Position numbers and translations under genes: made by a program. Under the pieces are notes generated by a model. That model had not been told where the DNA came from, did not search any database, and saw only the letters and a list, made by a program, of their open reading frames with translations. A stretch of 64,000 bases of DNA from Verrucomicrobiota bacterium (lineage in GTDB: Bacteria > Verrucomicrobiota > Verrucomicrobiia > Verrucomicrobiales > V1-33): positions 31,558 to 95,557 of the forward strand of contig QQNF01000007.1 in NCBI GenBank assembly GCA_003402705.1, written 5' to 3'. Below are positions 28,090 through 52,369 of this stretch, one piece after another; position 1 is the stretch's first letter; every line of letters starts with the position of its first letter.

Positions 28090-28274
28090 TTTACGATCAT
28101 GGGGGAAAGTGAGGCGTGTGTCAAAGACGTGAAGTATTTCAAGTTCACGATTATCTGATAAAGTAACGCATGAATGATATTGGCGCTTGATCGGAAGGTG
28201 GCGTGGCTCAGGAGTTACGTTCAGCAATCGATCGCCCGGAAGGGTGTGTGCTGCGCCGGAGTTTCCGGCAATCA

Positions 28275-29348
28275 ATGAACCCGCACGGCTTTATCTACGA
28301 CGACGAAGACCCGCTGCTCGGACCGCTGGTGCGGTATCTGAGGCGGCATCCGAAACGCGTGGTCTTTCCGGACGGACAAGATCTCCGGGTTCTGCGCGCT
28401 GCTGCGGAACTTGCCAGGCTCGAAGCCGTTGCGCCGGTCCTGCTGGGAAACCGGGTAGCAATCCAGTCACTCGCACGAGAACATGGGATCAAACTCGACT
28501 TTGTGGGTATCATCGATCCGGAAGCGAGCCATGATTTCGAGCGATTCTGCGAGCTTTACCGCAAGGTCAGCCGTTATCGGAAAGCTGGGGCGGTCGATCC
28601 CCGCGAAGTAATGTCTCAGCCTGGATATTTTGCCGCCATGATGCTGCAGTACGGATACGCCGATGGCGCGGTGGGAGGGAACCAGATGATTCCGGCAGCA
28701 TGGTTTCGAGCACTGCAGCATCTTATCCGCAAGCTGCCCGGAATTGATGCAGTGTCCAGTTGTGCTCCGCTTCGCCTTCCTGACCGCCCAGAGATTGGGT
28801 GTGGTGGCACGCTGGTGCTCGCAGACTGCGCTGTCATCCCCTCGCCGACCGTTCCGCAACTGGCCATGATCGCTGTTGAGTCGGCTAAAGTGGCGGCGGC
28901 ACTGCTTCAGGAACGGCCGCGGGTGGCAATGGTGAGCTTTTCCACTCGAGGCAGCGCCACCCACGCTGCTGTGCAAAAGGTGGCGGCTGCCACTGGACTC
29001 GCGAGGGAACACCTGCGCAGTCAGCGGATTGATGCGGAGATCGACGGGGAACTCGAGATCGACGCCGCACTGGATCCCGAAACAGCCCGGATCAAGGCTC
29101 CCGGAAGTCCTCTTGGCGGACGTGCCAATGTCCTTGTCTTTCCGGATCTCGACGCAGCGCATTCGGCCTTCAAACTGCTTGAATGCACCGCGCGAGCACA
29201 GTCGGCCGGTCAGCAGATTCTCGGGCTTGCCCGTCCAGCGGCACAGGTTTCGCGGGGTGCCTCATGGGGCGCTGTTTTTGCTGCCGCGCTAGCAACCGCC
29301 ATGCGGGCAGTTTCCTTCCGTTCGCTCATCGAGAACGAACGGGGCTGA
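28275..29348 (+). CDS. Phosphate acetyl/butyryl-transferase (PTA_PTB family)
   Basis: RVVFPDGQDLRVLRAA, YADGAVGG, VSFSTRGSA, ANVLVFPDLDAAHSAFKLL. ATG at 28275; the track start is 28203. Confidence 0.7.
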   Translation: MNPHGFIYDDEDPLLGPLVRYLRRHPKRVVFPDGQDLRVLRAAAELARLEAVAPVLLGNRVAIQSLAREHGIKLDFVGIIDPEASHDFERFCELYRKVSRYRKAGAVDPREVMSQPGYFAAMMLQYGYADGAVGGNQMIPAAWFRALQHLIRKLPGIDAVSSCAPLRLPDRPEIGCGGTLVLADCAVIPSPTVPQLAMIAVESAKVAAALLQERPRVAMVSFSTRGSATHAAVQKVAAATGLAREHLRSQRIDAEIDGELEIDAALDPETARIKAPGSPLGGRANVLVFPDLDAAHSAFKLLECTARAQSAGQQILGLARPAAQVSRGASWGAVFAAALATAMRAVSFRSLIENERG

Positions 29349-29368
29349 AGCCATTGAAAACCGTATGA

Positions 29369-30382
29369 TTAACCGCCAATGGCAATCATTCTGCGGCCCG
29401 GCAGGTAGGTCGTCCGGAAGTCGTGTTCCTTCGGCTTGCGGTCCACTGTATCAGCGATGAGTCGGGTGATTTCATCATCGCTGGCTCCGGCCCGCAGCGG
29501 AGTGATGAGGTCAGTCTCCATGTGGCTGCCAAGACACGGCCTGAGTTTTCCGTCGGCCGTCAGGCGGAGCTTGTTGCAGCTCTCACAGAAATGCAGGTTG
29601 GTCATAGCCCCGATGAAACCCACGAGTTGGTTCCGATCGGGGATTCGCCAGTAGGACGCCGGACCGTTCGTGCGGACCTCGGGGCAGGGGATCATTGGCC
29701 CGTAGTGTGCCGCCAGGATCTGCTGAACGGTACCGCAGGACAGGAAATTGTCAGCAGTGAGCACTTCGGTCGTCGACACCGGCATCAATTCGATGAAACG
29801 CAGCAGGCACCCATGAGCGTGCGCGAATTCGACAAGGTCCGAAACTTCGCATTCCGTCCGGCCCTTCATGAGCACACAATTCAGTTTGACGCTTTCGAAT
29901 CCCGCCACACAAGCCGCTTCGATTCCAGCAAGGGCACGCGCATGAAAGTCGCGATTGGTAATCGCGGCATAGGCTGCTTGGTCTAGCGTATCCAGTGAAA
30001 TGTTGACTGTGCGGACGCCAGCCTCAACGAGACGACGGGCCATGGTGATGCCGTCACCCGATTCTTCCGCCGGAACATCGGCAAGCAACGTGCCATTCGT
30101 GGAAATCCCGATGTCCTCAACTCCAGGAACGGCGGCGACACTTCGAATCAGCGCGAGGACATTCCGTCGGGTCAATGGTTCGCCACCCGTGATGCGGACC
30201 TTGCGGATCCCCATGCCCGCGCCAATTCTCAGAACTCTCAGGATTTCCTCGTAGCTCAGGATTCCTTCGCGCGGCAGCCATTCCTGGCGTTCCTCCGGCA
30301 GGCAGTAACGGCAGCGCTCATTGCAGCGATCGGTGATGCTGATGCGGAGGTACGAAATGCGATGGCCGAACCGGTCTTCCAC
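29369..30382 (-). CDS. moaA: GTP 3',8-cyclase (molybdenum cofactor biosynthesis protein A)
   Basis: YLRISITDRCNERCRYC radical-SAM CxxxCxxC motif, with a C-terminal Cys cluster CESCNKLRLTADGKLRPCL. Confidence 0.9.
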   Translation of the reverse strand: MEDRFGHRISYLRISITDRCNERCRYCLPEERQEWLPREGILSYEEILRVLRIGAGMGIRKVRITGGEPLTRRNVLALIRSVAAVPGVEDIGISTNGTLLADVPAEESGDGITMARRLVEAGVRTVNISLDTLDQAAYAAITNRDFHARALAGIEAACVAGFESVKLNCVLMKGRTECEVSDLVEFAHAHGCLLRFIELMPVSTTEVLTADNFLSCGTVQQILAAHYGPMIPCPEVRTNGPASYWRIPDRNQLVGFIGAMTNLHFCESCNKLRLTADGKLRPCLGSHMETDLITPLRAGASDDEITRLIADTVDRKPKEHDFRTTYLPGRRMIAIGG

Positions 30383-30481
30383 GGGGTTTTGTTTGACATT
30401 TGTCCTGCTCCCGCCTTGTCATCAGCGCAACACGAATGTCCTTGCGTTTCGCATGGCCAAGAAGAAACTGGCAAAGTGAAC

Positions 30482-30931
30482 ATGCTCAGATTCAGCCTCG
30501 CCGGAATCGCCGCAGCGGCGCTCGTTGCCTGTGCGTCATCGACCCCGCAGCGGCGCCTCGCTGCCAATCCCCAGATGGTCCAGTCTCTGTCACAGAGCGA
30601 TCTCGCAGCCGTTCAGTCTGGACGGATCGCAGAGGGCATGTCGCGCGATGCTGTCTATCTCGCACTCGGGGCTCCTAACAACGTGATGAAGGGCAGCCGG
30701 GCGGGAAAAGAGACCGAGATGTGGCGCTACACGTCACTCCAGCCCGTTGTCTCCAACAGTTTCTTCATGGGTGCCGGCGCAGGATATTTCGGACCGTATG
30801 GCAACCGCTACTGGGGACCCGGGTTCGGACCCGGCATGATGACCACCACCGGCACTGATTTCATACCAGTGACCTCCGCAGTCATTCAATTCGAAAACGC
30901 CAAAGTCACCGGCTGGGAACGGGCTCAGTAA
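30482..30931 (+). CDS. Small lipoprotein (SmpA/OmlA/BamE-like)
   Basis: MLRFSLAGIAAAALVACASS lipobox, and GMSRDAVYLALGAP typical of the SmpA_OmlA fold. ATG at 30482. Confidence 0.5.
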   Translation: MLRFSLAGIAAAALVACASSTPQRRLAANPQMVQSLSQSDLAAVQSGRIAEGMSRDAVYLALGAPNNVMKGSRAGKETEMWRYTSLQPVVSNSFFMGAGAGYFGPYGNRYWGPGFGPGMMTTTGTDFIPVTSAVIQFENAKVTGWERAQ

Positions 30932-30955
30932 TCCTCGCCACCGCGCCCGGTAGCC

Positions 30956-31666
30956 TCAAACACCACCTCGGCGGAACCCCACAGCCAGTCCCATCTCCCG
31001 TCTCGCTCGCGATTCGAGATGTTCTTTCACGCGCTGATAAACGAAGAGCATCGTGGTCAGGACAAAGAAAGCCCCGGCAATGCCGGCTAGACTGCTGCCA
31101 CGGTGCACTGGATTCGATATCACCCCGTGAGGCGGGTGCCCGCCCAGAGCCCGAAGCGCGGCCCGAACCCCCGCGGCCGCATCCGTCGCCGCCAACTCAT
31201 CGAACGCCACCTTCGCCGCGACCGCGTTCTCGGTCCACGTTCCGCTGAACCCAAACACCGGTCGCTCACCATCGGCGGAAAACTCCAGCACCATGACCGC
31301 GCCCCGCGGTGCCATCGGTCCAACAGGTATCCACGCCTTCGCAAGGTGTGACGCGTAGTCGCTCGCACCAATCGCCGCCGCTGCCTCCATCGTCACCACA
31401 TAAACAATCTGCGGCACCGCCGCGGCCTCCGCCTCGATCGCTCTCCGGTCATCCGGTCCAAAGACTCTCGCCGCATCCACCACTCGCGACGCCGGCGGCG
31501 GCGGCAGCATCCTCCGCTCCTCGTCATGCCCCATGTCCTGCGCCACAATGGAACTCCAAAACCCGGCTACCTGAGCCAGGACCAGCTTCCATCCCGAAAT
31601 CCTTCTCGCGCTCGGCCAATTCACAGCCTGCAATTCCAAGCTTCCAGCCACTCCGGCAAGCGCCAA
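30956..31666 (-). CDS. TPM-domain-like membrane protein
   Basis: VVDAARVFGPDDRRAIEAE resembles the TPM domain N-terminus. C-terminal TM helix LAGIAGAFFVLTTMLFV. TTG start in the track. Confidence 0.45.
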   Translation of the reverse strand: MALAGVAGSLELQAVNWPSARRISGWKLVLAQVAGFWSSIVAQDMGHDEERRMLPPPPASRVVDAARVFGPDDRRAIEAEAAAVPQIVYVVTMEAAAAIGASDYASHLAKAWIPVGPMAPRGAVMVLEFSADGERPVFGFSGTWTENAVAAKVAFDELAATDAAAGVRAALRALGGHPPHGVISNPVHRGSSLAGIAGAFFVLTTMLFVYQRVKEHLESRARREMGLAVGFRRGGV

Positions 31667-45474: not shown

Positions 45475-45548
45475 TCTCCACCCAAGCCAGCCACCCGCCG
45501 ATCCCACCTGTTGCCATCCAGCGAAAGACTGAGCACAGTCTACCCATA

Positions 45549-46931
45549 ATGCTCACCTCCCTGCACATCAAGAACTTCAAAGCTTGGAAGGACACCGGCG
45601 AGGTCCCGCTGGCACCGCTGACGGTGATTTTTGGAGCCAACAGTGCCGGGAAGTCCAGCCTCGGGCATCTCCTCCTTGCTCTGAAACAAACCGCCCTCTC
45701 CTCCGACCGCAGAAGGGCTCTGCACTTGGGCGATCAAAACACGCTCATTGACTTGGGAACGTTTGAAGACTGTTTGCACGCCCATGATCTCAGCCAGGCG
45801 CTGGCATTTGACCTGAAATGGGCTCTGCCTGAAGATATTGTGGTGAAGAATCCACTGACGGGTGACAAATTCAACGGCAGCAAGATGTCTCTGTCTGTGA
45901 AGCTATCCGCCAATAAATCAGGGCAGCCCGAAGCCACGGCCATTCGCTACGTACTGGGCGAAGACGGCGAATCCTCATTGGATACTGAGTTTTCCCGTGA
46001 CAGCAAAGGATCCTACAGCCTGAAATCGTCCAGATACGGATTTACCCGGACCCAAGGGCGCATCTGGCCCCTTGATGCTCCCGAAAAGTTTTACCGAATT
46101 TCCGATACCACCCGGGCGAGATTTCAGAATGCCGGCTTTCTCGCCGATTTCGCGCTGTCGACGGAGCAAATGCTCACCGGGCTCTATTTTCTGGGACCGC
46201 TCCGAGATCACCCCCGACGAACCTATCAGTGGTCAGGTGACACCCCTGAAGACGTTGGTTCACGCGGCGAATTCACCATCCCGGCCATCCTTGCGGCCGA
46301 TGCCCAGAACCGAAAACTGAACCGCGGAGTGAAGCAACGCCTTCAATCATTCCCGGAATTCATTGCAAGATGGCTGAAGGACCTTGGAATCATTGACAGC
46401 TTTAAGGTTAGGGCGGTCGCGGCTGGCCGCAAGGAGTACGAGGTCCTCATCAAGACAGGCCCCAAGTCGCCTGAGGTCAAGATTACCGACGTCGGCTTTG
46501 GGGTTTCCCAGGTTCTCCCGGCGCTGGTGCTTCCGTTCTATTGCCCCGCAAACTCCGTCGTCTGGATGGAACAGCCGGAAATCCATCTCCATCCCCAGGT
46601 GCAGGCTCAACTGGCCGATGTGTTCATCTCAGCAGTGCAGGCCCGTGAAGGGAATTTTGCCCGCAATGTTCAATTGATAGTTGAAAGCCATTCCGAGCAT
46701 TTCCTGAACAGGCTTCAGAGAAGGATTGCGGAAGGAAGCATCAAAACGGAGGAGGTGGCCATCTATTTTTGCAGGAAAACGGAGGGCGGCACGGAATTGG
46801 AGCCGCTAACGGTCAATATGTTCGGTGATATCGAGAACTGGCCGGAAAACTTCTTTGGAGATGAGATGGCTGATTTGACGGCGCGCACCGTGGCCGCCGC
46901 CGAGCAACGCAAAAGCCTTTCAGCCAAATGA
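45549..46931 (+). CDS. ABC/SMC-type AAA ATPase (AAA_15/AAA_21-like with a DUF3696-like C-terminal tail)
   Basis: Starts MLTSLHIKNFKAWKD. Walker A GANSAGKSS, Walker B/D-loop region VWMEQPEIHLHP, H-loop IVESHSEHF, tail DIENWPENFFGDE. The first 927 nt of the 769-aa track ORF (44622-45548) are an out-of-frame overlap with the upstream gene. Confidence 0.8.
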   Translation: MLTSLHIKNFKAWKDTGEVPLAPLTVIFGANSAGKSSLGHLLLALKQTALSSDRRRALHLGDQNTLIDLGTFEDCLHAHDLSQALAFDLKWALPEDIVVKNPLTGDKFNGSKMSLSVKLSANKSGQPEATAIRYVLGEDGESSLDTEFSRDSKGSYSLKSSRYGFTRTQGRIWPLDAPEKFYRISDTTRARFQNAGFLADFALSTEQMLTGLYFLGPLRDHPRRTYQWSGDTPEDVGSRGEFTIPAILAADAQNRKLNRGVKQRLQSFPEFIARWLKDLGIIDSFKVRAVAAGRKEYEVLIKTGPKSPEVKITDVGFGVSQVLPALVLPFYCPANSVVWMEQPEIHLHPQVQAQLADVFISAVQAREGNFARNVQLIVESHSEHFLNRLQRRIAEGSIKTEEVAIYFCRKTEGGTELEPLTVNMFGDIENWPENFFGDEMADLTARTVAAAEQRKSLSAK

Positions 46932-47434
46932 CCAGCATCGTCGACACCAATGTTATCCTGGTAGCGAACGGGCAGCATTCTGACGTGGACCCGGAATGCG
47001 TTGCTGAATGCGCGCTTCGGCTGCAGAACCTGATGACCAATGGCAGGATCGCATTGGACGATGCCTATGAGATCCTGCTCGAATATCAGAACAAAACCCT
47101 ACCAAAATCCGGAAACAGGCCCGGCGACGCCTTCGTGAAGTGGGCCCTCCAAAACAACCGGACCGTCTCCAAGTGTGACTTGGTGCCACTGGAAGTCCAC
47201 CCGGAGCGTGGTTATGTCAGTTTTCCCGATGATCCACAGCTGAAGGCCTTCGATCCCCCGGACAGGAAGTTCGTCGCGGTCTCGGCTGCGCACCCGGATC
47301 ATCCGCCGATCCTGCAGGCGGCAGACTCCAAATGGCTGGCATGGGAACCATCGTTGAAACAACATGGCGTCGAGGTTCAGTTTCTTTGCCCTGACGACAT
47401 TAGACGCTTCCGCGACAACAAAGCAGGCAAATGA
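46928..47434 (+). CDS. PIN-domain nuclease
   Basis: N-terminal IVDTNVILVA, with later acidic positions in PPDRKFVAVSAA and QAADSKW, matching the PIN four-acidic-residue pattern. ATGA overlap with the ATPase stop. Confidence 0.6.
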   Translation: MTSIVDTNVILVANGQHSDVDPECVAECALRLQNLMTNGRIALDDAYEILLEYQNKTLPKSGNRPGDAFVKWALQNNRTVSKCDLVPLEVHPERGYVSFPDDPQLKAFDPPDRKFVAVSAAHPDHPPILQAADSKWLAWEPSLKQHGVEVQFLCPDDIRRFRDNKAGK

Positions 47435-48165
47435 ATGAGTTCTACCGCTTCCCTCACACGCCGCACCTCGCATGGCTGGGTGAAGGAAGCCCGAGGGACG
47501 ACAAGGTGCTTTCCTCCCCCGAAAGGGAAGAACTTCTGAATGGTGACGTCTTGGTCGAGGAGAAACTCGATGGCGCAAATCTTGGGATCACCATCAATTC
47601 CCTGGGCTCGATCTGCGTTCAAAACCGCGGCCAATATCTTGAGCCTCCGTTCTCCGGACAGTTCGCCCGTCTGTCTTCGTGGCTGCCGCCTCGGGAAGAA
47701 ATAATGACGCGCGTACTCGGACCCAACCTCATCCTGTTTGGGGAATGGTGCGCCGCCCGCCACTCTCTCGACTACTTCACCCTGCCGGACTGGTTTCTCG
47801 CCTTCGATGTCTACGACAGGTCTGCCGGCCGATTCTGGAGCACCGCCAGACGGAATGAATTGGTCTCCAGACTTTCCATTCCGTTTGTCCCTGCCGTTTT
47901 CACTGGGAAGACGAGCATGCAGGAATTGCAGGCACTGCTTCTTCACACCAACAGCCAGTTCCGTCCGGGGCCACTTGAGGGTTTGGTCATCCGAAAGGAG
48001 AACGCCGATTGGCTGGAGGGCCGCGCCAAGTTGGTTCAGCCAAACTTCACCCAAGCCATCACTCAGCATTGGAGCCGCCGGGGCTTTGTGTGGAATCGGC
48101 TATCCACCCCTGAGCCGGTTTGTGGAGGCTCGCCCGCAGGCTCCGAGGCCGGAAAGTCCTCCTGA
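47431..48165 (+). CDS. ATP-dependent RNA ligase family protein (nucleotidyltransferase superfamily)
   Basis: Motif I EEKLDGANLG (KxDG), motif III LILFGEW, IIIa FLAFDVYD, IV EGLVIRKE, V GRAKLVQPNF. ATGA overlap with the PIN stop. Confidence 0.75.
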   Translation: MNEFYRFPHTPHLAWLGEGSPRDDKVLSSPEREELLNGDVLVEEKLDGANLGITINSLGSICVQNRGQYLEPPFSGQFARLSSWLPPREEIMTRVLGPNLILFGEWCAARHSLDYFTLPDWFLAFDVYDRSAGRFWSTARRNELVSRLSIPFVPAVFTGKTSMQELQALLLHTNSQFRPGPLEGLVIRKENADWLEGRAKLVQPNFTQAITQHWSRRGFVWNRLSTPEPVCGGSPAGSEAGKSS

Positions 48166-49106
48166 CGCCTCCGTCTGAAGCACAGCAGCAACCCAGCGAT
48201 GGTGAGCGATGCAGTATGCGGCTCGGGGATGACGCCATGGATCCATCCCTGCAGGGACGATGTCCGCATCAGGTATCCAGTGTCTCCGTACCCGCTGCCG
48301 TAAAGGTTTCCGGGTTCAGTGGGATTCACGCCCCATGAGACGATGCCAACCAGTTCCGGGCCGTTGCCGAAGTCTGCAAAGGCCGGGCCGCCGCTGTCCC
48401 CCGGTGCGGAGGTTCCTTCCACGCCTGTAGGCAAGCTGGAACTCCCACTGCCCGCGATGCTGCTGTTTCCAGCCACCGGCACTCCGAACGCATCGAAGGC
48501 TGCCACCACCGCGAGGCTGTTTCTGGCAGTCTGGCCGTTGTCGAAGTCGTACACGAGGAGACCACCAGGGCCGTCGGGACCGTTCAGCGAGATCACGCGA
48601 TCGATGGTGTTCGTGAAGCCGAAGACCGTTGCACTGCCGTTGAGATCCGAGACTCCGCCTGCGGCCCCCGCCAGTCCGGTTCCGAGAACGGTGACGGTGA
48701 GGCCGTACTCAGCGTTTCCGGCATACAGCCTTGTGGAACCAAATCCTGCCACGGGCTGCGCCAGCCTCACCAAGTCCGCGTCCCAGCCCTGCTGCGCCGA
48801 AAAGCTGCCGTCCCAGCCCGGGTGCTGAACCCACGACTCAGCCTCATGCCGCTGGCCGTTGATGGAGAAGGAAAGGCGTGTCACCGCGTCGGCATCCCAG
48901 TTGTGCGCCGCCGTCAACACCCAGCGGTCACTGAGGAGCACGCCGGTGCCGCGATAGCTGCCGCTGGTTTCCACGATCTCCAACGTGCCCACTCCCCCGA
49001 ATGTCTGCCCGAGCAGTCGCGATGCCTCGAGATCCGGCAAACCGATAACCACGGCACCGGCCGTCGATGGCCAGAGGAGCGCCAGAAAGGCAGCGAAAGT
49101 CACCAT
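48063..49106 (-). CDS. Secreted trypsin-like (S1) serine protease with a PEP-CTERM anchor
   Basis: Internal ATG at 49106 gives the signal peptide MVTFAAFLALLWPSTAGA. Catalytic-triad contexts WVLTAAHNW and GDSGGPAF. C-terminal VIPEPHTASLTIAGLLLCFRRRR. It is in the same frame as the RT, with no stop between them. Confidence 0.7.
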   Translation of the reverse strand: MVTFAAFLALLWPSTAGAVVIGLPDLEASRLLGQTFGGVGTLEIVETSGSYRGTGVLLSDRWVLTAAHNWDADAVTRLSFSINGQRHEAESWVQHPGWDGSFSAQQGWDADLVRLAQPVAGFGSTRLYAGNAEYGLTVTVLGTGLAGAAGGVSDLNGSATVFGFTNTIDRVISLNGPDGPGGLLVYDFDNGQTARNSLAVVAAFDAFGVPVAGNSSIAGSGSSSLPTGVEGTSAPGDSGGPAFADFGNGPELVGIVSWGVNPTEPGNLYGSGYGDTGYLMRTSSLQGWIHGVIPEPHTASLTIAGLLLCFRRRRQEDFPASEPAGEPPQTGSGVDSRFHTKPRRLQC

Positions 49107-50393
49107 CCACCCGCCCGGAGCCTTCGACCCCGGATCCACGGGACTACCAGCGCCGGACGGGCGCGTTGTGGTTTTGTCGCCTCCGGAAACCGGAGACGAG
49201 CGGGACGGCGGCCGGTTCAGTCCCATGCTCATCGCGGGAGCATCCACCCCCGTTGGTCTGAGCTGCGAGCCAGACGGAACCCGATGTTGTTGTTCGTGTT
49301 CGCCGGGGTGTTGTTGTTGCGGTTCGCGGCGCGGCAGTTGTTCGCGTTGTTGTTCCAACTGCCGCCCCGGTTCACCCGGTTCGTGCCCGATGGCCGCCGA
49401 CCGGAGTTTCTCCATCACGCCCCGCCGGAAGCCGTGCGAGCGCACCGGCAGGACGAAGGCCGTGAACGCGGTGAGACGCTCTTGCAGGGCCTTTGCGGAA
49501 ATCATGTCGTCCTCGTACAGGGCATCCAGTAGACGCAGCTTGCGCCAATAGCGGACCTTGCTGCGGCGGTTGAGTTCCGCATGGTTGGGAAAAATCCGGT
49601 AGCCGAGGAAATCCATGCCGCGCCCGGTGGGTTGCGGGCATGGCGGGTGCTTGAGCGCGAGACCCAGTTCCTGTTCCACGAAGGTTTGGATTTCCTTGCC
49701 CAGCATGGTCATTGCCGCCTTGTCGTCTCCCCAGCAGACAAAGTCGTCCATGTAACGGCAATACGCCTTCACCACCGGGTGTTTCTGGCAAAATCGATCC
49801 AGCGGACCAAGGTAGAAATTCGCCAGATGCTGGCTGGTCAGGCTGCCGATGGGCAGGCCCTTGCCCTCCTCCGGACGATGACCACGCAGGATTTTCTCCA
49901 GCCAATGAAGAATCTCCGGGTCTTTGAACAACCGGTGCAGCCTCGAAATCAGGCGTTCCTGCGGGATCGACTCGAAATATTTCCGGATGTCCAGCTTGAG
50001 GTGCCACGCCCGGCCACGCGCCGCCTTTTGCGCGGCATCAATGGCTCTGAGCCGTCCCTTGCCCTTGCGGCAGGCATAACTGTGAAAAACCGCCTGCCGC
50101 TCCAGCACCGGTTCACACAAATTCATCAGCGCATGATGGAAGACCCGTTCCACAAAACGAGCCGCGTGGATCGTCCGCTCCTTGGGATCATACACCATGA
50201 ATACGTTGAACTGCCCAGTCTCGAAGCGGCGCCCGATCACTTCCTCGCGCAGGCGATCCAGGCTCCCGTCCAGATCTTCTGCGAAGCGACGCACCTCCTG
50301 CTTGTGCCGCTTGCCGCGTGCCGCCTGATGGAACGCCCGCAGCAGATTCCCCCGCTCGATCACGGCCGGCCACAGGTTGCCGATGCGTTTCAT
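49107..50393 (-). CDS. DGR reverse transcriptase (the reading frame continues without a stop to 48063)
   Basis: [30 protein letters not shown]-terminus, [25 protein letters not shown] (the DGR-type I/LGxxxSQ motif), and the YMDD box in [11 protein letters not shown]. The lower coordinate is arbitrary: it is the codon before the protease Met. Confidence 0.85.
49258..49391 (-). repeat. DGR template repeat (TR)
   Basis: 134-bp match to 51032-51165. In the target frame it reads [41 protein letters not shown] (15 AAC codons). Confidence 0.9.
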
Positions 50394-50857
50394 TTCGCCG
50401 CCTCCTTGCCCGTCAGGCTGGCGAGAAACGCGGCACCGTATTTCTCGATGCGCGCGGCACCCACGCCCGGAATAGATCCCATCGCCGTAAGCGAATCCAC
50501 CTTCCCCGTCACCATTGCTGCGAGTTGCTCGTTGGTGAAAATCGAATAAGCCGGAATAGCCGCTTTCTCCGAGACGGTCTTCCGCAAATCCCGCAGACGC
50601 GCGAATACGGCAAAATCTGCCTCAGTGAGCAGCTCCTTGTAGTCGATCTTGGGTCCGCTGGTGCCGCTCCGCCCTTTGTCCATGACGCCTACAGAGCCAT
50701 CCAGGAACTCGATGCAAAACGCCCAGAACGAGTCCTCACCATTGGCGACGAACTCTTTGCGCACGGACGCAATGCGGCCGCCCCGGAGCAGCTTGTTCAG
50801 CTCCTCCTTGGCATTGCCCTGCCCGTTCGCCGGGATCTGGATGAACTCAAATGGCAT
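50390..50857 (-). CDS. DGR accessory protein with a C-terminal HRDC domain
   Basis: DFAVFARLRDLRKTVSEKAAIPAYSIFTNEQLAAMVTGKVDSLTAMGSIPGVGAARIEKYGAAFLASL fits the HRDC helix pattern. The stop overlaps the RT start (ATGA). Confidence 0.7.
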   Translation of the reverse strand: MPFEFIQIPANGQGNAKEELNKLLRGGRIASVRKEFVANGEDSFWAFCIEFLDGSVGVMDKGRSGTSGPKIDYKELLTEADFAVFARLRDLRKTVSEKAAIPAYSIFTNEQLAAMVTGKVDSLTAMGSIPGVGAARIEKYGAAFLASLTGKEAAK

Positions 50858-50879
50858 AACACATGTTAAAATTTTTCCT

Positions 50880-50892
50880 GGGGCTTCGCCCC
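50880..50892 (-). other. Short GC hairpin between the DGR target and the accessory gene
   Basis: ggggc-ttc-gcccc. It lies 131 nt downstream of the target stop codon and 22 nt upstream of the accessory ATG. Confidence 0.3.
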
Positions 50893-51023
50893 TTTGCTCC
50901 TTTTGCTAATGGGTGTCTTTCGTAGCACCTTCCTGGAGTTGCCGCTCCACTCCCGTCACTTCGTTGCCTGCGGTCGTCCCTCCCTTGGCTACTCCGTTCC
51001 GTTCGCTCCGCCACCGGCTGTTC

Positions 51024-52229
51024 CTAGGGGACTGAACTGCGAGCCAGACGGAACCCGAAGTTGATGTACGTGAACGCCGGGGAGTCGTAGGAGCGGATCG
51101 CGGCGCGGCAGTTGCCCGCGTAGTTGAACCAACTGCCGCCCCGGAGCACCCGGTCCGTGCCCGAGGCAGCACCCCGTGGATCGATAGCTCCGCTCACATA
51201 CGTCGATGCTCCATACCAATCCCAGCACCACTCCCAGACATTCCCCGCCATGTCATACAAGCCATACCCGTTGGCCGCAAAACTTCCCACGGGTGATGTG
51301 TAAGGGAATTCTCCCACCCTGTAGCTGGGGTGGTAACCGTTCACCGCCCCACTTGAATCGTAGCTCCAGCCGCTATAAGCACGATAGTTGGCCTGACTAT
51401 GGCTGATCGTGTCCAAGCCCGAGGGGAATCGTTTCCCGCTCACTCCGCCGCGCGCTGCTTTTTCCCACTCGGCCTCCGTCGGCAGCCGATAGCCATTCGC
51501 ACTCCAGTTCGCCGTCGGCACCGAAGTCCCCGTCCTCATCACAGCGGCGCTAACCGTGTAAACCGGAGTCAGCCCGTCTCTCTGGCTGCGCGCATTGCAC
51601 CACTTCACCATGTCAAACCAACGGATCTCCTGCACCGGGTGATTGCTCGCCTTGCCGCCTCCTTCCGCGAGATCCGTGTAGCCATTGGCGGCACCCCAAG
51701 TCCGCACCTCATCCCACAGGGCTTTCGTCACTTCGTATTGCCCCATGAAAAAGGCGCTCACCGTCACCGTCACAGGTGGAGCATTGCTATCCGTGTCGCC
51801 GCTGGTGCGTCCCATCATGAAGGCGCCCGCGGGGATGAACGAAAAGCCTTCGGGGACTCCTGTCGGTGTATCGAGCGCAAGCCGATAGAACCGCCGGGGC
51901 ACTCCGGCGGCGTGAGGGGTGGTGATCACAAGGTTGTTCCCGTCCCCAATGACTACGCTGCCAACATCCTGCCACGTTCCACCCTCCAACGTGTCTGCAT
52001 ACTGGAGCAGGTAGCTGCGGCCCACGACCGATGGCTGGACCGTGAAATTCAGGTTCCCACCAACAATTTCAAGTTTCGGCGCAACCAACTCCCCCGGCGC
52101 GATCGGCTCCGCACCCGTCGCAAAAACCGTCAGCGCCGCAAAAAGGGAAACCACCAGCGGACCGAGCCGGCGACGACCAGGCTCTAGGAGGCTTCTGAGT
52201 TGGGCGTAAGGTTTCGGATGCGCTCTCAT
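51024..52229 (-). CDS. DGR variable protein: signal peptide + beta-sandwich region + FGE-sulfatase/C-type-lectin-fold domain
   Basis: FIPAGAFMMGR, YRLPTEAEWEKAARGG, DMAGNVWEWCWDWY, and the C-terminal variable segment RVLRGGSWFNYAGNCRAAIRSYDSPAFTYINFGFRLARS. ATG at 52229; the track TTG start is 52250. Confidence 0.9.
   Translation of the reverse strand: MRAHPKPYAQLRSLLEPGRRRLGPLVVSLFAALTVFATGAEPIAPGELVAPKLEIVGGNLNFTVQPSVVGRSYLLQYADTLEGGTWQDVGSVVIGDGNNLVITTPHAAGVPRRFYRLALDTPTGVPEGFSFIPAGAFMMGRTSGDTDSNAPPVTVTVSAFFMGQYEVTKALWDEVRTWGAANGYTDLAEGGGKASNHPVQEIRWFDMVKWCNARSQRDGLTPVYTVSAAVMRTGTSVPTANWSANGYRLPTEAEWEKAARGGVSGKRFPSGLDTISHSQANYRAYSGWSYDSSGAVNGYHPSYRVGEFPYTSPVGSFAANGYGLYDMAGNVWEWCWDWYGASTYVSGAIDPRGAASGTDRVLRGGSWFNYAGNCRAAIRSYDSPAFTYINFGFRLARSSVP
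51032..51165 (-). repeat. DGR variable repeat (VR) at the 3' end of the target gene
   Basis: Differs from the TR at 19 positions, all of them adenines in the TR coding strand (plus-strand T in the TR versus A/C/G in the VR). One further C/T mismatch sits at the 3' boundary. Confidence 0.9.
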
Positions 52230-52369
52230 GGGTCGGGGGTTCGCAGTCAAATAGCAGGAAGTGAGGAAACCGTTATCGGAAATTTCCCATTTCTTCGTGC
52301 CTTTGGCAGGCGGATTTCGAAAATCCCTTCCCTGAAGCTCTCGTCAATGCAGCCGATTGCCCGCCCCCC

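Follow-up and report, generated by a model that had tools for sequence, protein, structure and literature searches.

The retroelement and the question that it raises

Does the RNA machinery of the well-studied phage diversity-generating retroelement (DGR) survive in elements that have neither the phage accessory protein Avd nor the phage gene order? The question is raised by a locus in a 64-kb stretch of DNA (contig QQNF01000007.1, assembly GCA_003402705.1; hereafter the window) that comes from freshwater lake metagenomes and belongs to a freshwater member of the Akkermansiaceae (Verrucomicrobiota). To our knowledge, DGRs are the only prokaryotic system of targeted protein hypervariation, and their mechanism is known almost wholly from one Avd-dependent phage element. 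The locus is very probably a complete chromosomal DGR of the HRDC type (Architecture C), with a target gene, an HRDC accessory gene, a reverse transcriptase (RT) gene and a template repeat (TR) following one another. We give about even chances to a broader proposal in three parts: that Avd-less HRDC DGRs in which the TR follows the RT share the phage RNA scaffold, that their site of initiation of mutagenic homing (IMH) is set by perfect pairing to a primer ~ 35 nt past the TR, and that a C-to-T or C-to-G mismatch between the repeats marks an RNA-guided, one-way choice of target. Coordinates refer to the forward strand of the window; the genes and repeats of the cassette lie on the minus (coding) strand.

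Template and variable repeats

An unbiased repeat search identified 49255–49390 and 51029–51164 as a long direct repeat (offset 1774, gapless, 85% identity) and thereby independently recovered the gapless pair that an earlier reading of the sequence, made from the letters only and referred to here as the sequence-only reading, had delimited as the TR (49258–49391, minus strand) and the variable repeat (VR; 51032–51165, minus strand). The TR contains 38 adenines and 15 AAC codons in the target frame. The VR comprises the last 45 codons of the target, ends 8 nt from the stop codon of the open reading frame (ORF) at 51024–52250 (minus strand), and its A-templated differences span 51059–51155. Base-by-base comparison agreed with the earlier count that all 19 internal mismatches, located at 49285–49381, have adenine on the coding strand of the TR; the VR carries T (13), G (4) or C (2) instead. 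Two more TR-A mismatches occur at the edge positions 49257 and 49391. The sole non-A mismatch, already noticed at the 3′ boundary, is a change of TR-C to VR-T at 49262/51036, close to the 3′ end. Further non-A mismatches beyond this boundary were looked for in the exact alignment as evidence against a DGR and none was found, 95 of the 96 non-A TR positions being identical in the VR. The probability that at least 19 of 20 mismatches hit an A is ~ 6e-10 (binomial, A fraction 0.28).

The peptides deduced earlier from the two repeats were reproduced exactly: the VR encodes SGTDRVLRGGSWFNYAGNCRAAIRSYDSPAFTYINFGFRLA and its TR-encoded counterpart is 41 residues long. Twelve of the 15 AAC codons are altered in the VR, and the two other A positions reported with them correspond to ACC>TCC and ATC>TTC. 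No third copy of the repeat was found in the 64-kb window, also when A positions were ignored, and there are no remote targets there.

The pair could in principle be an ordinary duplication or a gene-conversion tract between paralogues that happens to lie beside an unrelated RT of a retron, group II intron or defence system. FGE-sulfatase paralogues (FGE, formylglycine-generating enzyme) are abundant in these genomes, and the RT also matches defence RT models, weakly. However, this explanation is refuted by the A-specificity of the mismatches, by dozens of relatives that show the same arrangement and an A-specific pair of their own, and by an RT of the DGR type, to which no other RT class comes nearly as close as the Bordetella phage DGR RT. 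The TR copy moreover lies outside any lectin-fold gene, and we consider a duplication wholly improbable.

Reverse transcriptase and accessory protein

The RT that the sequence-only reading had placed between VR and TR, with IGSLTSQ and YMDD motifs, is encoded by the ORF at 49392–50393 (minus strand), the catalytic part being ~ 330 amino acids long. It matches Pfam RVT_1 (6e-18) and the PHROG 1423 reverse transcriptase family (9e-96). Among solved structures it comes closest to the Bordetella phage DGR RT (PDB accession number 8UB7; 1.4e-45 over residues 2–288), and the next RT class in the PDB, group II or retron-type, is far behind at about 1e-16 to 1.9e-16. By sequence, the enzyme belongs to the DGR clade.

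The RT ORF has no stop codon of its own. The frame stays open across the T-poor TR and the 3′ RNA and joins that of the following trypsin-like gene, yielding a mechanical ORF of 776 amino acids (48063–50393, minus strand). The RT ORF of the closest relative, L004, stops at a TGA located 25 nt beyond the TR; an extra G in a run at 49241–49245 of the window, confirmed by independent contigs, shifts the RT frame relative to that locus. A genuine 776-residue RT-TR-protease protein was considered and rejected, since the protease carries a signal peptide of its own and the closest relative shows no such fusion. In all Akkermansiaceae relatives, the whole TR is overlapped by the RT coding sequence in another frame.

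An accessory gene had also been reported between the VR and the RT. It is present at 50390–50857 (minus strand) as the sole ORF between target and RT, its stop codon overlapping the RT start (ATGA), and its 155-residue product is an HRDC protein, not Avd. Residues 1–52 form a β-α-β-β domain, followed by a disordered linker and the HRDC domain at residues 73–149 (Pfam HRDC 6e-15). The AlphaFold2 (AF2) model has a predicted local distance difference test (pLDDT) value of 81.5, and its HRDC part superposes on the RecQ HRDC structure (PDB accession number 1wud) with a template modelling (TM) score of 0.85 and a root mean square deviation (RMSD) of 1.2 Å. The N-terminal domain (50702–50857, minus strand) contains many invariant residues and is modelled confidently (pLDDT 80–90), with no confident match among the solved structures in the PDB. 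In 14 related loci, the gene just before the RT likewise encodes the HRDC protein at full length. No avd gene occurs in the cassette, where only 166 nt separate the target stop from the HRDC start and leave no space for one, the genome elsewhere not having been searched for it; avd beside TR and RT, the arrangement of the Avd-dependent DGRs of Architecture B, the Bordetella and Legionella type, is not what is found at this cassette.

Relatives and class of the element

The nearest RTs, ranked among species-representative genomes, belong to Akkermansiaceae and Luteolibacter metagenome-assembled genomes (MAGs) at 91–72% identity, followed by another verrucomicrobium at 51%. RTs of Pirellulales, Planctomycetota, Magnetococcales, Treponema and cyanobacteria share 36–43% identity; those of Treponema MAGs (36–39%, same gene order) are among the nearest relatives outside the Planctomycetes-Verrucomicrobia-Chlamydiae (PVC) bacteria. 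A-specific TR/VR pairs were detected in 27 fetched loci, each locus being compared with itself. The TR directly follows the RT in 17 of these 27, every close relative included, and the target-HRDC-RT-TR order is kept, spanning Verrucomicrobia, Planctomycetes, Magnetococcales and Treponema.

RT-TR orders and HRDC cassettes have been catalogued as Architectures A2, B2 and C (PMC5758913). The HRDC-containing Architecture C of Wu et al. 2018 accounted for 14 of 372 DGRs (4%), found only in the Treponema DGR clade (PMC5758913). The position of the TR downstream of the RT, which the sequence-only reading had called unusual, is therefore not so: it is common to the close relatives, the rule in this clade, and already catalogued. 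The identification extends a known but little-studied HRDC subtype, of which the element is an ordinary member and not a new system; together with its relatives, the locus offers a clean natural example of this rare class.

Target protein and its diversification

The target gene (51024–52250, minus strand) encodes a signal-peptide-like N-terminus, judged by eye only, a β-rich N-terminal domain of ~ 70 amino acids, and an FGE-sulfatase/C-type-lectin domain (Pfam 4e-51) at whose C-terminal end the VR is located, as had been proposed. The start codon is uncertain and may be TTG at 52250, ATG at 52229, or a GTG that gives the 376-residue product found in a public protein collection. The best sequence match in the PDB is the DGR variable protein TvpA of Treponema denticola (PDB accession number 2Y3C; 4e-29), and Foldseek ranks the same entry first for the AF2 model (pLDDT 66.9; E 4.5e-16). 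The catalytic Cys pair of the formylglycine-generating enzymes has no counterpart in the alignment of the target to them, and thus the protein is a binding scaffold rather than such an enzyme.

The T. denticola DGR resembles the window in being chromosomal, in having an HRDC accessory gene, and in diversifying an FGE-sulfatase-type C-type-lectin target with a C-terminal VR (2Y3C; PMC5758913). The Legionella pneumophila DGR (LdtA), likened here by description only, is likewise chromosomal or island-borne and acts on an exported C-type-lectin-fold protein of the cell itself. It differs in its Avd and MSL accessory gene and in its avd-TR-RT order (PMC5758913).

When the target was aligned with 35 homologues (36 proteins, 58–86% identity), the 15 TR-Asn positions averaged 3.08 bits of entropy, the rest of the FGE domain 0.91 and the non-Asn positions of the VR 1.01. 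The window, L004 and L057 have a near-identical 3′ portion of the TR and different VRs at A-templated sites. The VR of a related strain, seen in sequencing runs X3 and X6, differs from that of the window at 29 positions, 23 of them TR-A sites. These patterns point to diversification over evolutionary time between lineages.

A related genome carries three paralogues of the target on one 107.5-kb JGI contig (P0001, P0002 and P0021). Two of them are ~ 670 residues long, about twice the length, with 81–84% identity over the whole query. They may represent multi-target or tandem-domain DGR targets.

Structured RNA 3′ of the template repeat

The TR is followed by a conserved structured RNA of ~ 150 nt (49107–49257, minus strand), the counterpart of the Bordetella phage spacer. 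When the TR end plus 200 nt was aligned between the window and eight relatives, conservation extended over ~ 150 nt and stopped 1–4 nt short of the ATG of the next gene at 49106. The parts are, in order, the P1 hairpin (49251–49236), a primer-like strand, a duplex strand, the P2 stem-loop (49201–49177), the A-rich segment GACAAAAC, and the P3 domain (49161–49110), which comprises an inner hairpin and invariant GUAG and GAA motifs. RNAalifold resolved three helical elements, in which 22 of 30 pairs are kept via changes on both sides. With the fold-back duplex included, 86% of cells are paired vs 33–48% when the partners are slid, and compensatory pairs number 23 vs 8–11; none of 500 shuffles reaches the observed values.

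An 11-bp duplex (49402–49392 with 49213–49203) brackets the TR. Its 5′ strand, GGUCGGCGGCC (49392–49402, minus strand), is part of the final RT codons and immediately precedes the TR, and its 3′ strand, GGCCGCCGUCC (49203–49213, minus strand), begins 1 nt past the primer-like strand. Compensatory changes occur in L006, L008, L009, L010 and L025; for example, GGAUGCCGGCC pairs with GGCCGUCAUCC in L006, GGGCGGUGGCC with GGUCACCGUCC in L009, GGUCGAUGGCC with GGCCAUCGUUCC in L010, and GGAGAACGGUC with GACCGUUCUCC in L025.

A covariance model of the RNA gave matches in further loci, in every case on the RT strand. Those in L044, L025, L021 and L023 are at most ~ 300 nt downstream of the RT; L040 gave a partial match and L028 a weak one (E 0.19) ~ 1.6 kb away, and no Treponema locus was detected by the model. 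No Rfam family matches anywhere in the window. If the broader proposal is right, the ~ 150-nt RNA would constitute a new RNA family, absent from Rfam.

In the phage RNA, Sp47–56 pairs with TR117–129 through 7 canonical and 3 non-standard pairs. This is followed by a 2-nt spacer, by an 11-bp avd:Sp duplex in which Sp59–70 pairs with the segment just upstream of the TR (the 'cPRT Stop'), and then by a short stem-loop and unpaired adenosines (bioRxiv 10.1101/2023.10.23.563531). Handa et al. surveyed such RNA elements only in Avd-bearing DGRs (bioRxiv 10.1101/2023.10.23.563531). The window RNA reproduces this order and spacing, with the primer strand, 1 nt, the 11-bp duplex, the P2 stem-loop and GACAAAAC, and its predicted structure suggests that it shares the cis-priming scaffold plan of the Bordetella phage.

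The Bordetella phage BPP-1 DGR (mtd-avd-TR-brt) shares with the window an adenine-specific TR-to-VR transfer, an RT of the same clade, and the series of primer strand, 1–2 nt, 11-bp duplex, stem-loop and adenosines after the TR, the last as predicted in the window. The two elements differ in that the window has an HRDC protein in the place of Avd and the TR after rather than before the RT, and in that the 5′ strand of the bracketing duplex lies within the RT coding sequence rather than avd. Furthermore, the target in the window is a secreted protein of the cell itself instead of a phage tail fiber, and no GC-rich hairpin follows its VR. By this comparison, the primer strand, the bracketing duplex and the 3′ domain seem to persist as RNA machinery although an HRDC protein has taken the place of Avd and the TR has moved.

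Primer-like strand and the ends of the repeats

The VR-specific 3′ end, with the IMH core GTTCAGTCCC (51028–51037, minus strand), holds a C-to-T (51036) and an A-to-T (51031) change relative to the TR, whose own 3′ end carries the IMH* version GCUCAGACC (49263–49255, minus strand). An IMH/IMH* difference is therefore present between the 3′ ends of the VR, CAGTTCAGTCCCC, and of the TR, CAGCUCAGACCAA. It is conserved in five Akkermansiaceae elements (the window, L004, L006, L007 and L008), and analogous C-to-T or C-to-G differences at the 3′ end occur in most relatives.

The primer-like RNA strand GGGACUGAAC (49215–49224, minus strand) is predicted to fold back on the TR end GCUCAGACCA with 7 standard pairs and 3 mismatches. 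The same 10-mer is the perfect reverse complement of the VR end GTTCAGTCCC (51037–51028), which explains the single non-A mismatch, C to T, between the repeats. A compensatory change is seen in L006, where the VR has GTTCAGTTCC and the RNA GGAACUGAAC. Corresponding pairs are GTTCTGC(GG) with (CC)GCAGAAC in the Treponema relatives, GGTCGTC with GACGACC in L009, and GGACTCTT with AAGAGUCC in L027. For the phage element, Naorem et al. proposed that a primer pairing more extensively with IMH than with IMH* provides directionality (PMC5703328), and BPP-1 resembles the window in this respect, the VR end being a better partner for the primer strand than the TR end (PMC5703328).

The complementarity was evaluated against dinucleotide shuffles in 17 lineages with an anchored test; an earlier, unanchored longest-match version had chosen wrong sites in some loci. 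The anchored test gave p = 0.002 for the window, 0.004 for L017, 0.024 for L009 and 0.046 for L030, with a Fisher combined p of 6.5e-4. With good support from these comparisons, we infer that the primer/IMH relation holds in the Akkermansiaceae and Treponema lineages. The Treponema MAG loci L013, L017 and L018 agree with the window in the target-HRDC-RT-TR order, the C-to-T 3′ difference and the antisense primer-like strand. They differ in an RT identity of only 36–39% and in falling outside the 3′ RNA model, and the host of the window element is a freshwater verrucomicrobium.

A covariation-supported RNA scaffold and a primer/IMH relation in an Avd-less lineage add a testable extension to the phage model. 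If both the shared scaffold and the primer-defined IMH are correct, they would bring covariation support to a model so far proposed for one phage, and would supply a rule by which DGR targets could be predicted from the RNA and redirected in laboratory strains. How the cDNA (complementary DNA) finds the VR and what the accessory protein does become testable questions.

Proposed mechanism

By analogy with the phage element, the cassette would be transcribed as one RNA; a scan for promoters and terminators gave nothing above chance. The RNA at 49402–49107 may fold around the RT together with the HRDC protein, with the 11-bp duplex bracketing the TR, and the HRDC protein presumably fills the nucleic-acid-handling role of Avd. 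The strand GGGACUGAAC would fold back on the TR 3′ end and prime cDNA synthesis in cis near C49215, as in the phage element. The RT would then copy the TR faithfully except at adenines, so that each of the 15 AAC (Asn) codons could be converted to up to 15 amino acids, and the adenine-mutagenised cDNA would stop at the bracketing duplex. The RNA-cDNA hybrid may subsequently anneal to the VR, the primer strand guiding the 3′ boundary and TR/VR homology the 5′ side, and the cDNA would replace the VR and alter ~ 17 surface residues on the predicted ligand-binding face of the lectin fold of a secreted or surface protein. Transfer would be one-way, because the primer is perfectly complementary to the VR end and mismatched at three positions to the end of the TR itself.

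Alternatively, an active DGR could be primed by nicked target DNA, that is, by target-primed reverse transcription, with the conserved RNA only binding the RT and the HRDC protein. Related group II intron RTs use target-primed synthesis (bioRxiv 10.1101/2023.10.23.563531), one of the three mismatches between the primer-like strand and the TR is beside the 3′ terminal pair, and the primer/VR-end complementarity test fails in several lineages. Nonetheless, we judge this route to be quite unlikely. In the only biochemically studied DGR, cDNA synthesis is target-independent and cis-primed (PMC5703328; bioRxiv 10.1101/2023.10.23.563531), and the window RNA repeats the phage order of primer strand, bracketing duplex, stem-loop and adenosines.

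Several points weigh against an active, cis-primed element as proposed here. The complementarity between primer and VR end is uneven, being absent in L010, L024 and others, and 13 of the 17 lineages are individually not significant; the primer/VR-end rule is therefore not claimed to be universal. The register of the primer on the TR is ambiguous, with UGAGC pairing with GCUCA as an alternative, and both the cis-priming and the role of the HRDC protein are inferred by analogy. No GC-rich inverted repeat follows the VR (the hairpin z value at 51045–50858 is +0.46); such repeats downstream of the IMH are found in 34% of DGRs and are not universal (PMC5758913). The lost RT stop codon leaves a frame continuous with the next gene, which might impair expression. 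Finally, a JGI contig and the Logan contigs of runs X2 and X4 all carry exactly the VR of the window, and no VR variants were detected within samples; this is weak evidence because only contigs were compared, and contigs drop rare variants.

Intact, decayed and empty alleles

The search for variants covered JGI metagenome contigs, which were scanned with the TR pattern (A replaced by N) and returned only the contig identical to the window, and Logan contigs of nine runs, which were compared with the VR and the TR. The contigs of run X1 have an assembly gap that cuts into both the VR and the TR and are uninformative, and runs other than X1, X2 and X4 hold diverged relatives. Run X25, the only 'RNA' run, contains fragments of a related strain only, a deletion allele among them, and offers no sign of expression.

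Two altered forms of the locus were found in related strains. The decayed allele (L057 1–1163 and L058) carries a 1.24-kb deletion, through which HRDC codons 1 to ~ 108 are joined to the final ~ 35 nt of the TR (joints 50536/49292). The RT and most of the TR are gone; the protease gene and the 3′ RNA have been kept, as has a VR, which differs from that of the window. This allele was seen in two ENA contigs, in four protein clusters (P0231, P0233, P0235 and P0237) and in runs X3 and X25. In the cassette-free allele (runs X3 and X6; joint 50993/49093), the 17 nt GCTCTCACTTCGCTTGA replace the HRDC-RT-TR-RNA module and the target adjoins the protease. The replaced module starts 31 nt past the target stop and extends to where the conserved RNA ends. 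Decay is therefore common in the population.

It is possible, though on balance improbable, that the window DGR itself was recently inactivated or is dormant, with the VR a frozen record of past homing and the cassette heading for decay. The identity of the VR in three independent data sets, the loss of the RT stop codon via the extra G in the G-run, and the deletion and cassette-free alleles of related strains are consistent with such a state. Against it, the RT is full length with intact catalytic motifs, and no damage is seen in the HRDC gene, the TR or any RNA helix, nor in the primer/VR-end complementarity. The TR retains all 15 AAC codons, and there is no non-A drift between TR and VR, which argues for recent homing. 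In ecological terms, the element would diversify a secreted or surface lectin-fold protein in an abundant lake verrucomicrobium; intact, decayed and empty alleles coexist in nature.

Genomic context

The cassette is flanked by chromosomal genes (sulfatase, tgt, yajC and PSCyt/PSD1). The sequence-only reading had described a chromosomal DGR free of flanking phage genes. The chromosomal flanks and the absence of phage genes stand, with the correction that the DGR is part of a compositional island that was probably acquired horizontally. This 6.8-kb island (45500–52300) has a GC skew of −0.03 to −0.17 vs −0.35 in both flanks, the genome having an extreme skew of about 0.3–0.4, and within it the GC content is lowered to 0.55–0.58 at 45.6–48 kb; its composition suggests a recent horizontal acquisition. 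It contains a candidate HEC-03 defence pair, an RNA ligase gene, a trypsin-like protein and the DGR. The horizontal origin of the DGR is considered probable because of the compositional island and the neighbouring candidate defence pair.

The candidate anti-phage pair consists of HEC-03B (45537–46931, plus strand; PADLOC 1e-135), an AAA_15/DUF3696 ATPase, and HEC-03A (46928–47434, plus strand; 3e-20). The RNA ligase gene (47431–48165, plus strand; Pfam 5e-29) overlaps the end of HEC-03A, and the three genes are translationally coupled. The trypsin-like serine protease gene (48063–49106, minus strand; Pfam 7e-13) directly follows the DGR and encodes its own signal peptide and a C-terminal tail of the form PEP...hydrophobic...RRRR, typical of PEP-CTERM sorting. 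L004 has the same neighbour at 72% identity.

The GC skew of the window as a whole is extreme and independent of the gene strand, amounting to +0.2 to +0.45 over 1–28 kb and to −0.3 to −0.5 over 31–64 kb. The switch occurs at ~ 28200–31000, in ~ 3 kb of near-zero skew with pta-like and moaA-like genes, and its plus-to-minus polarity is as expected of a replication terminus.

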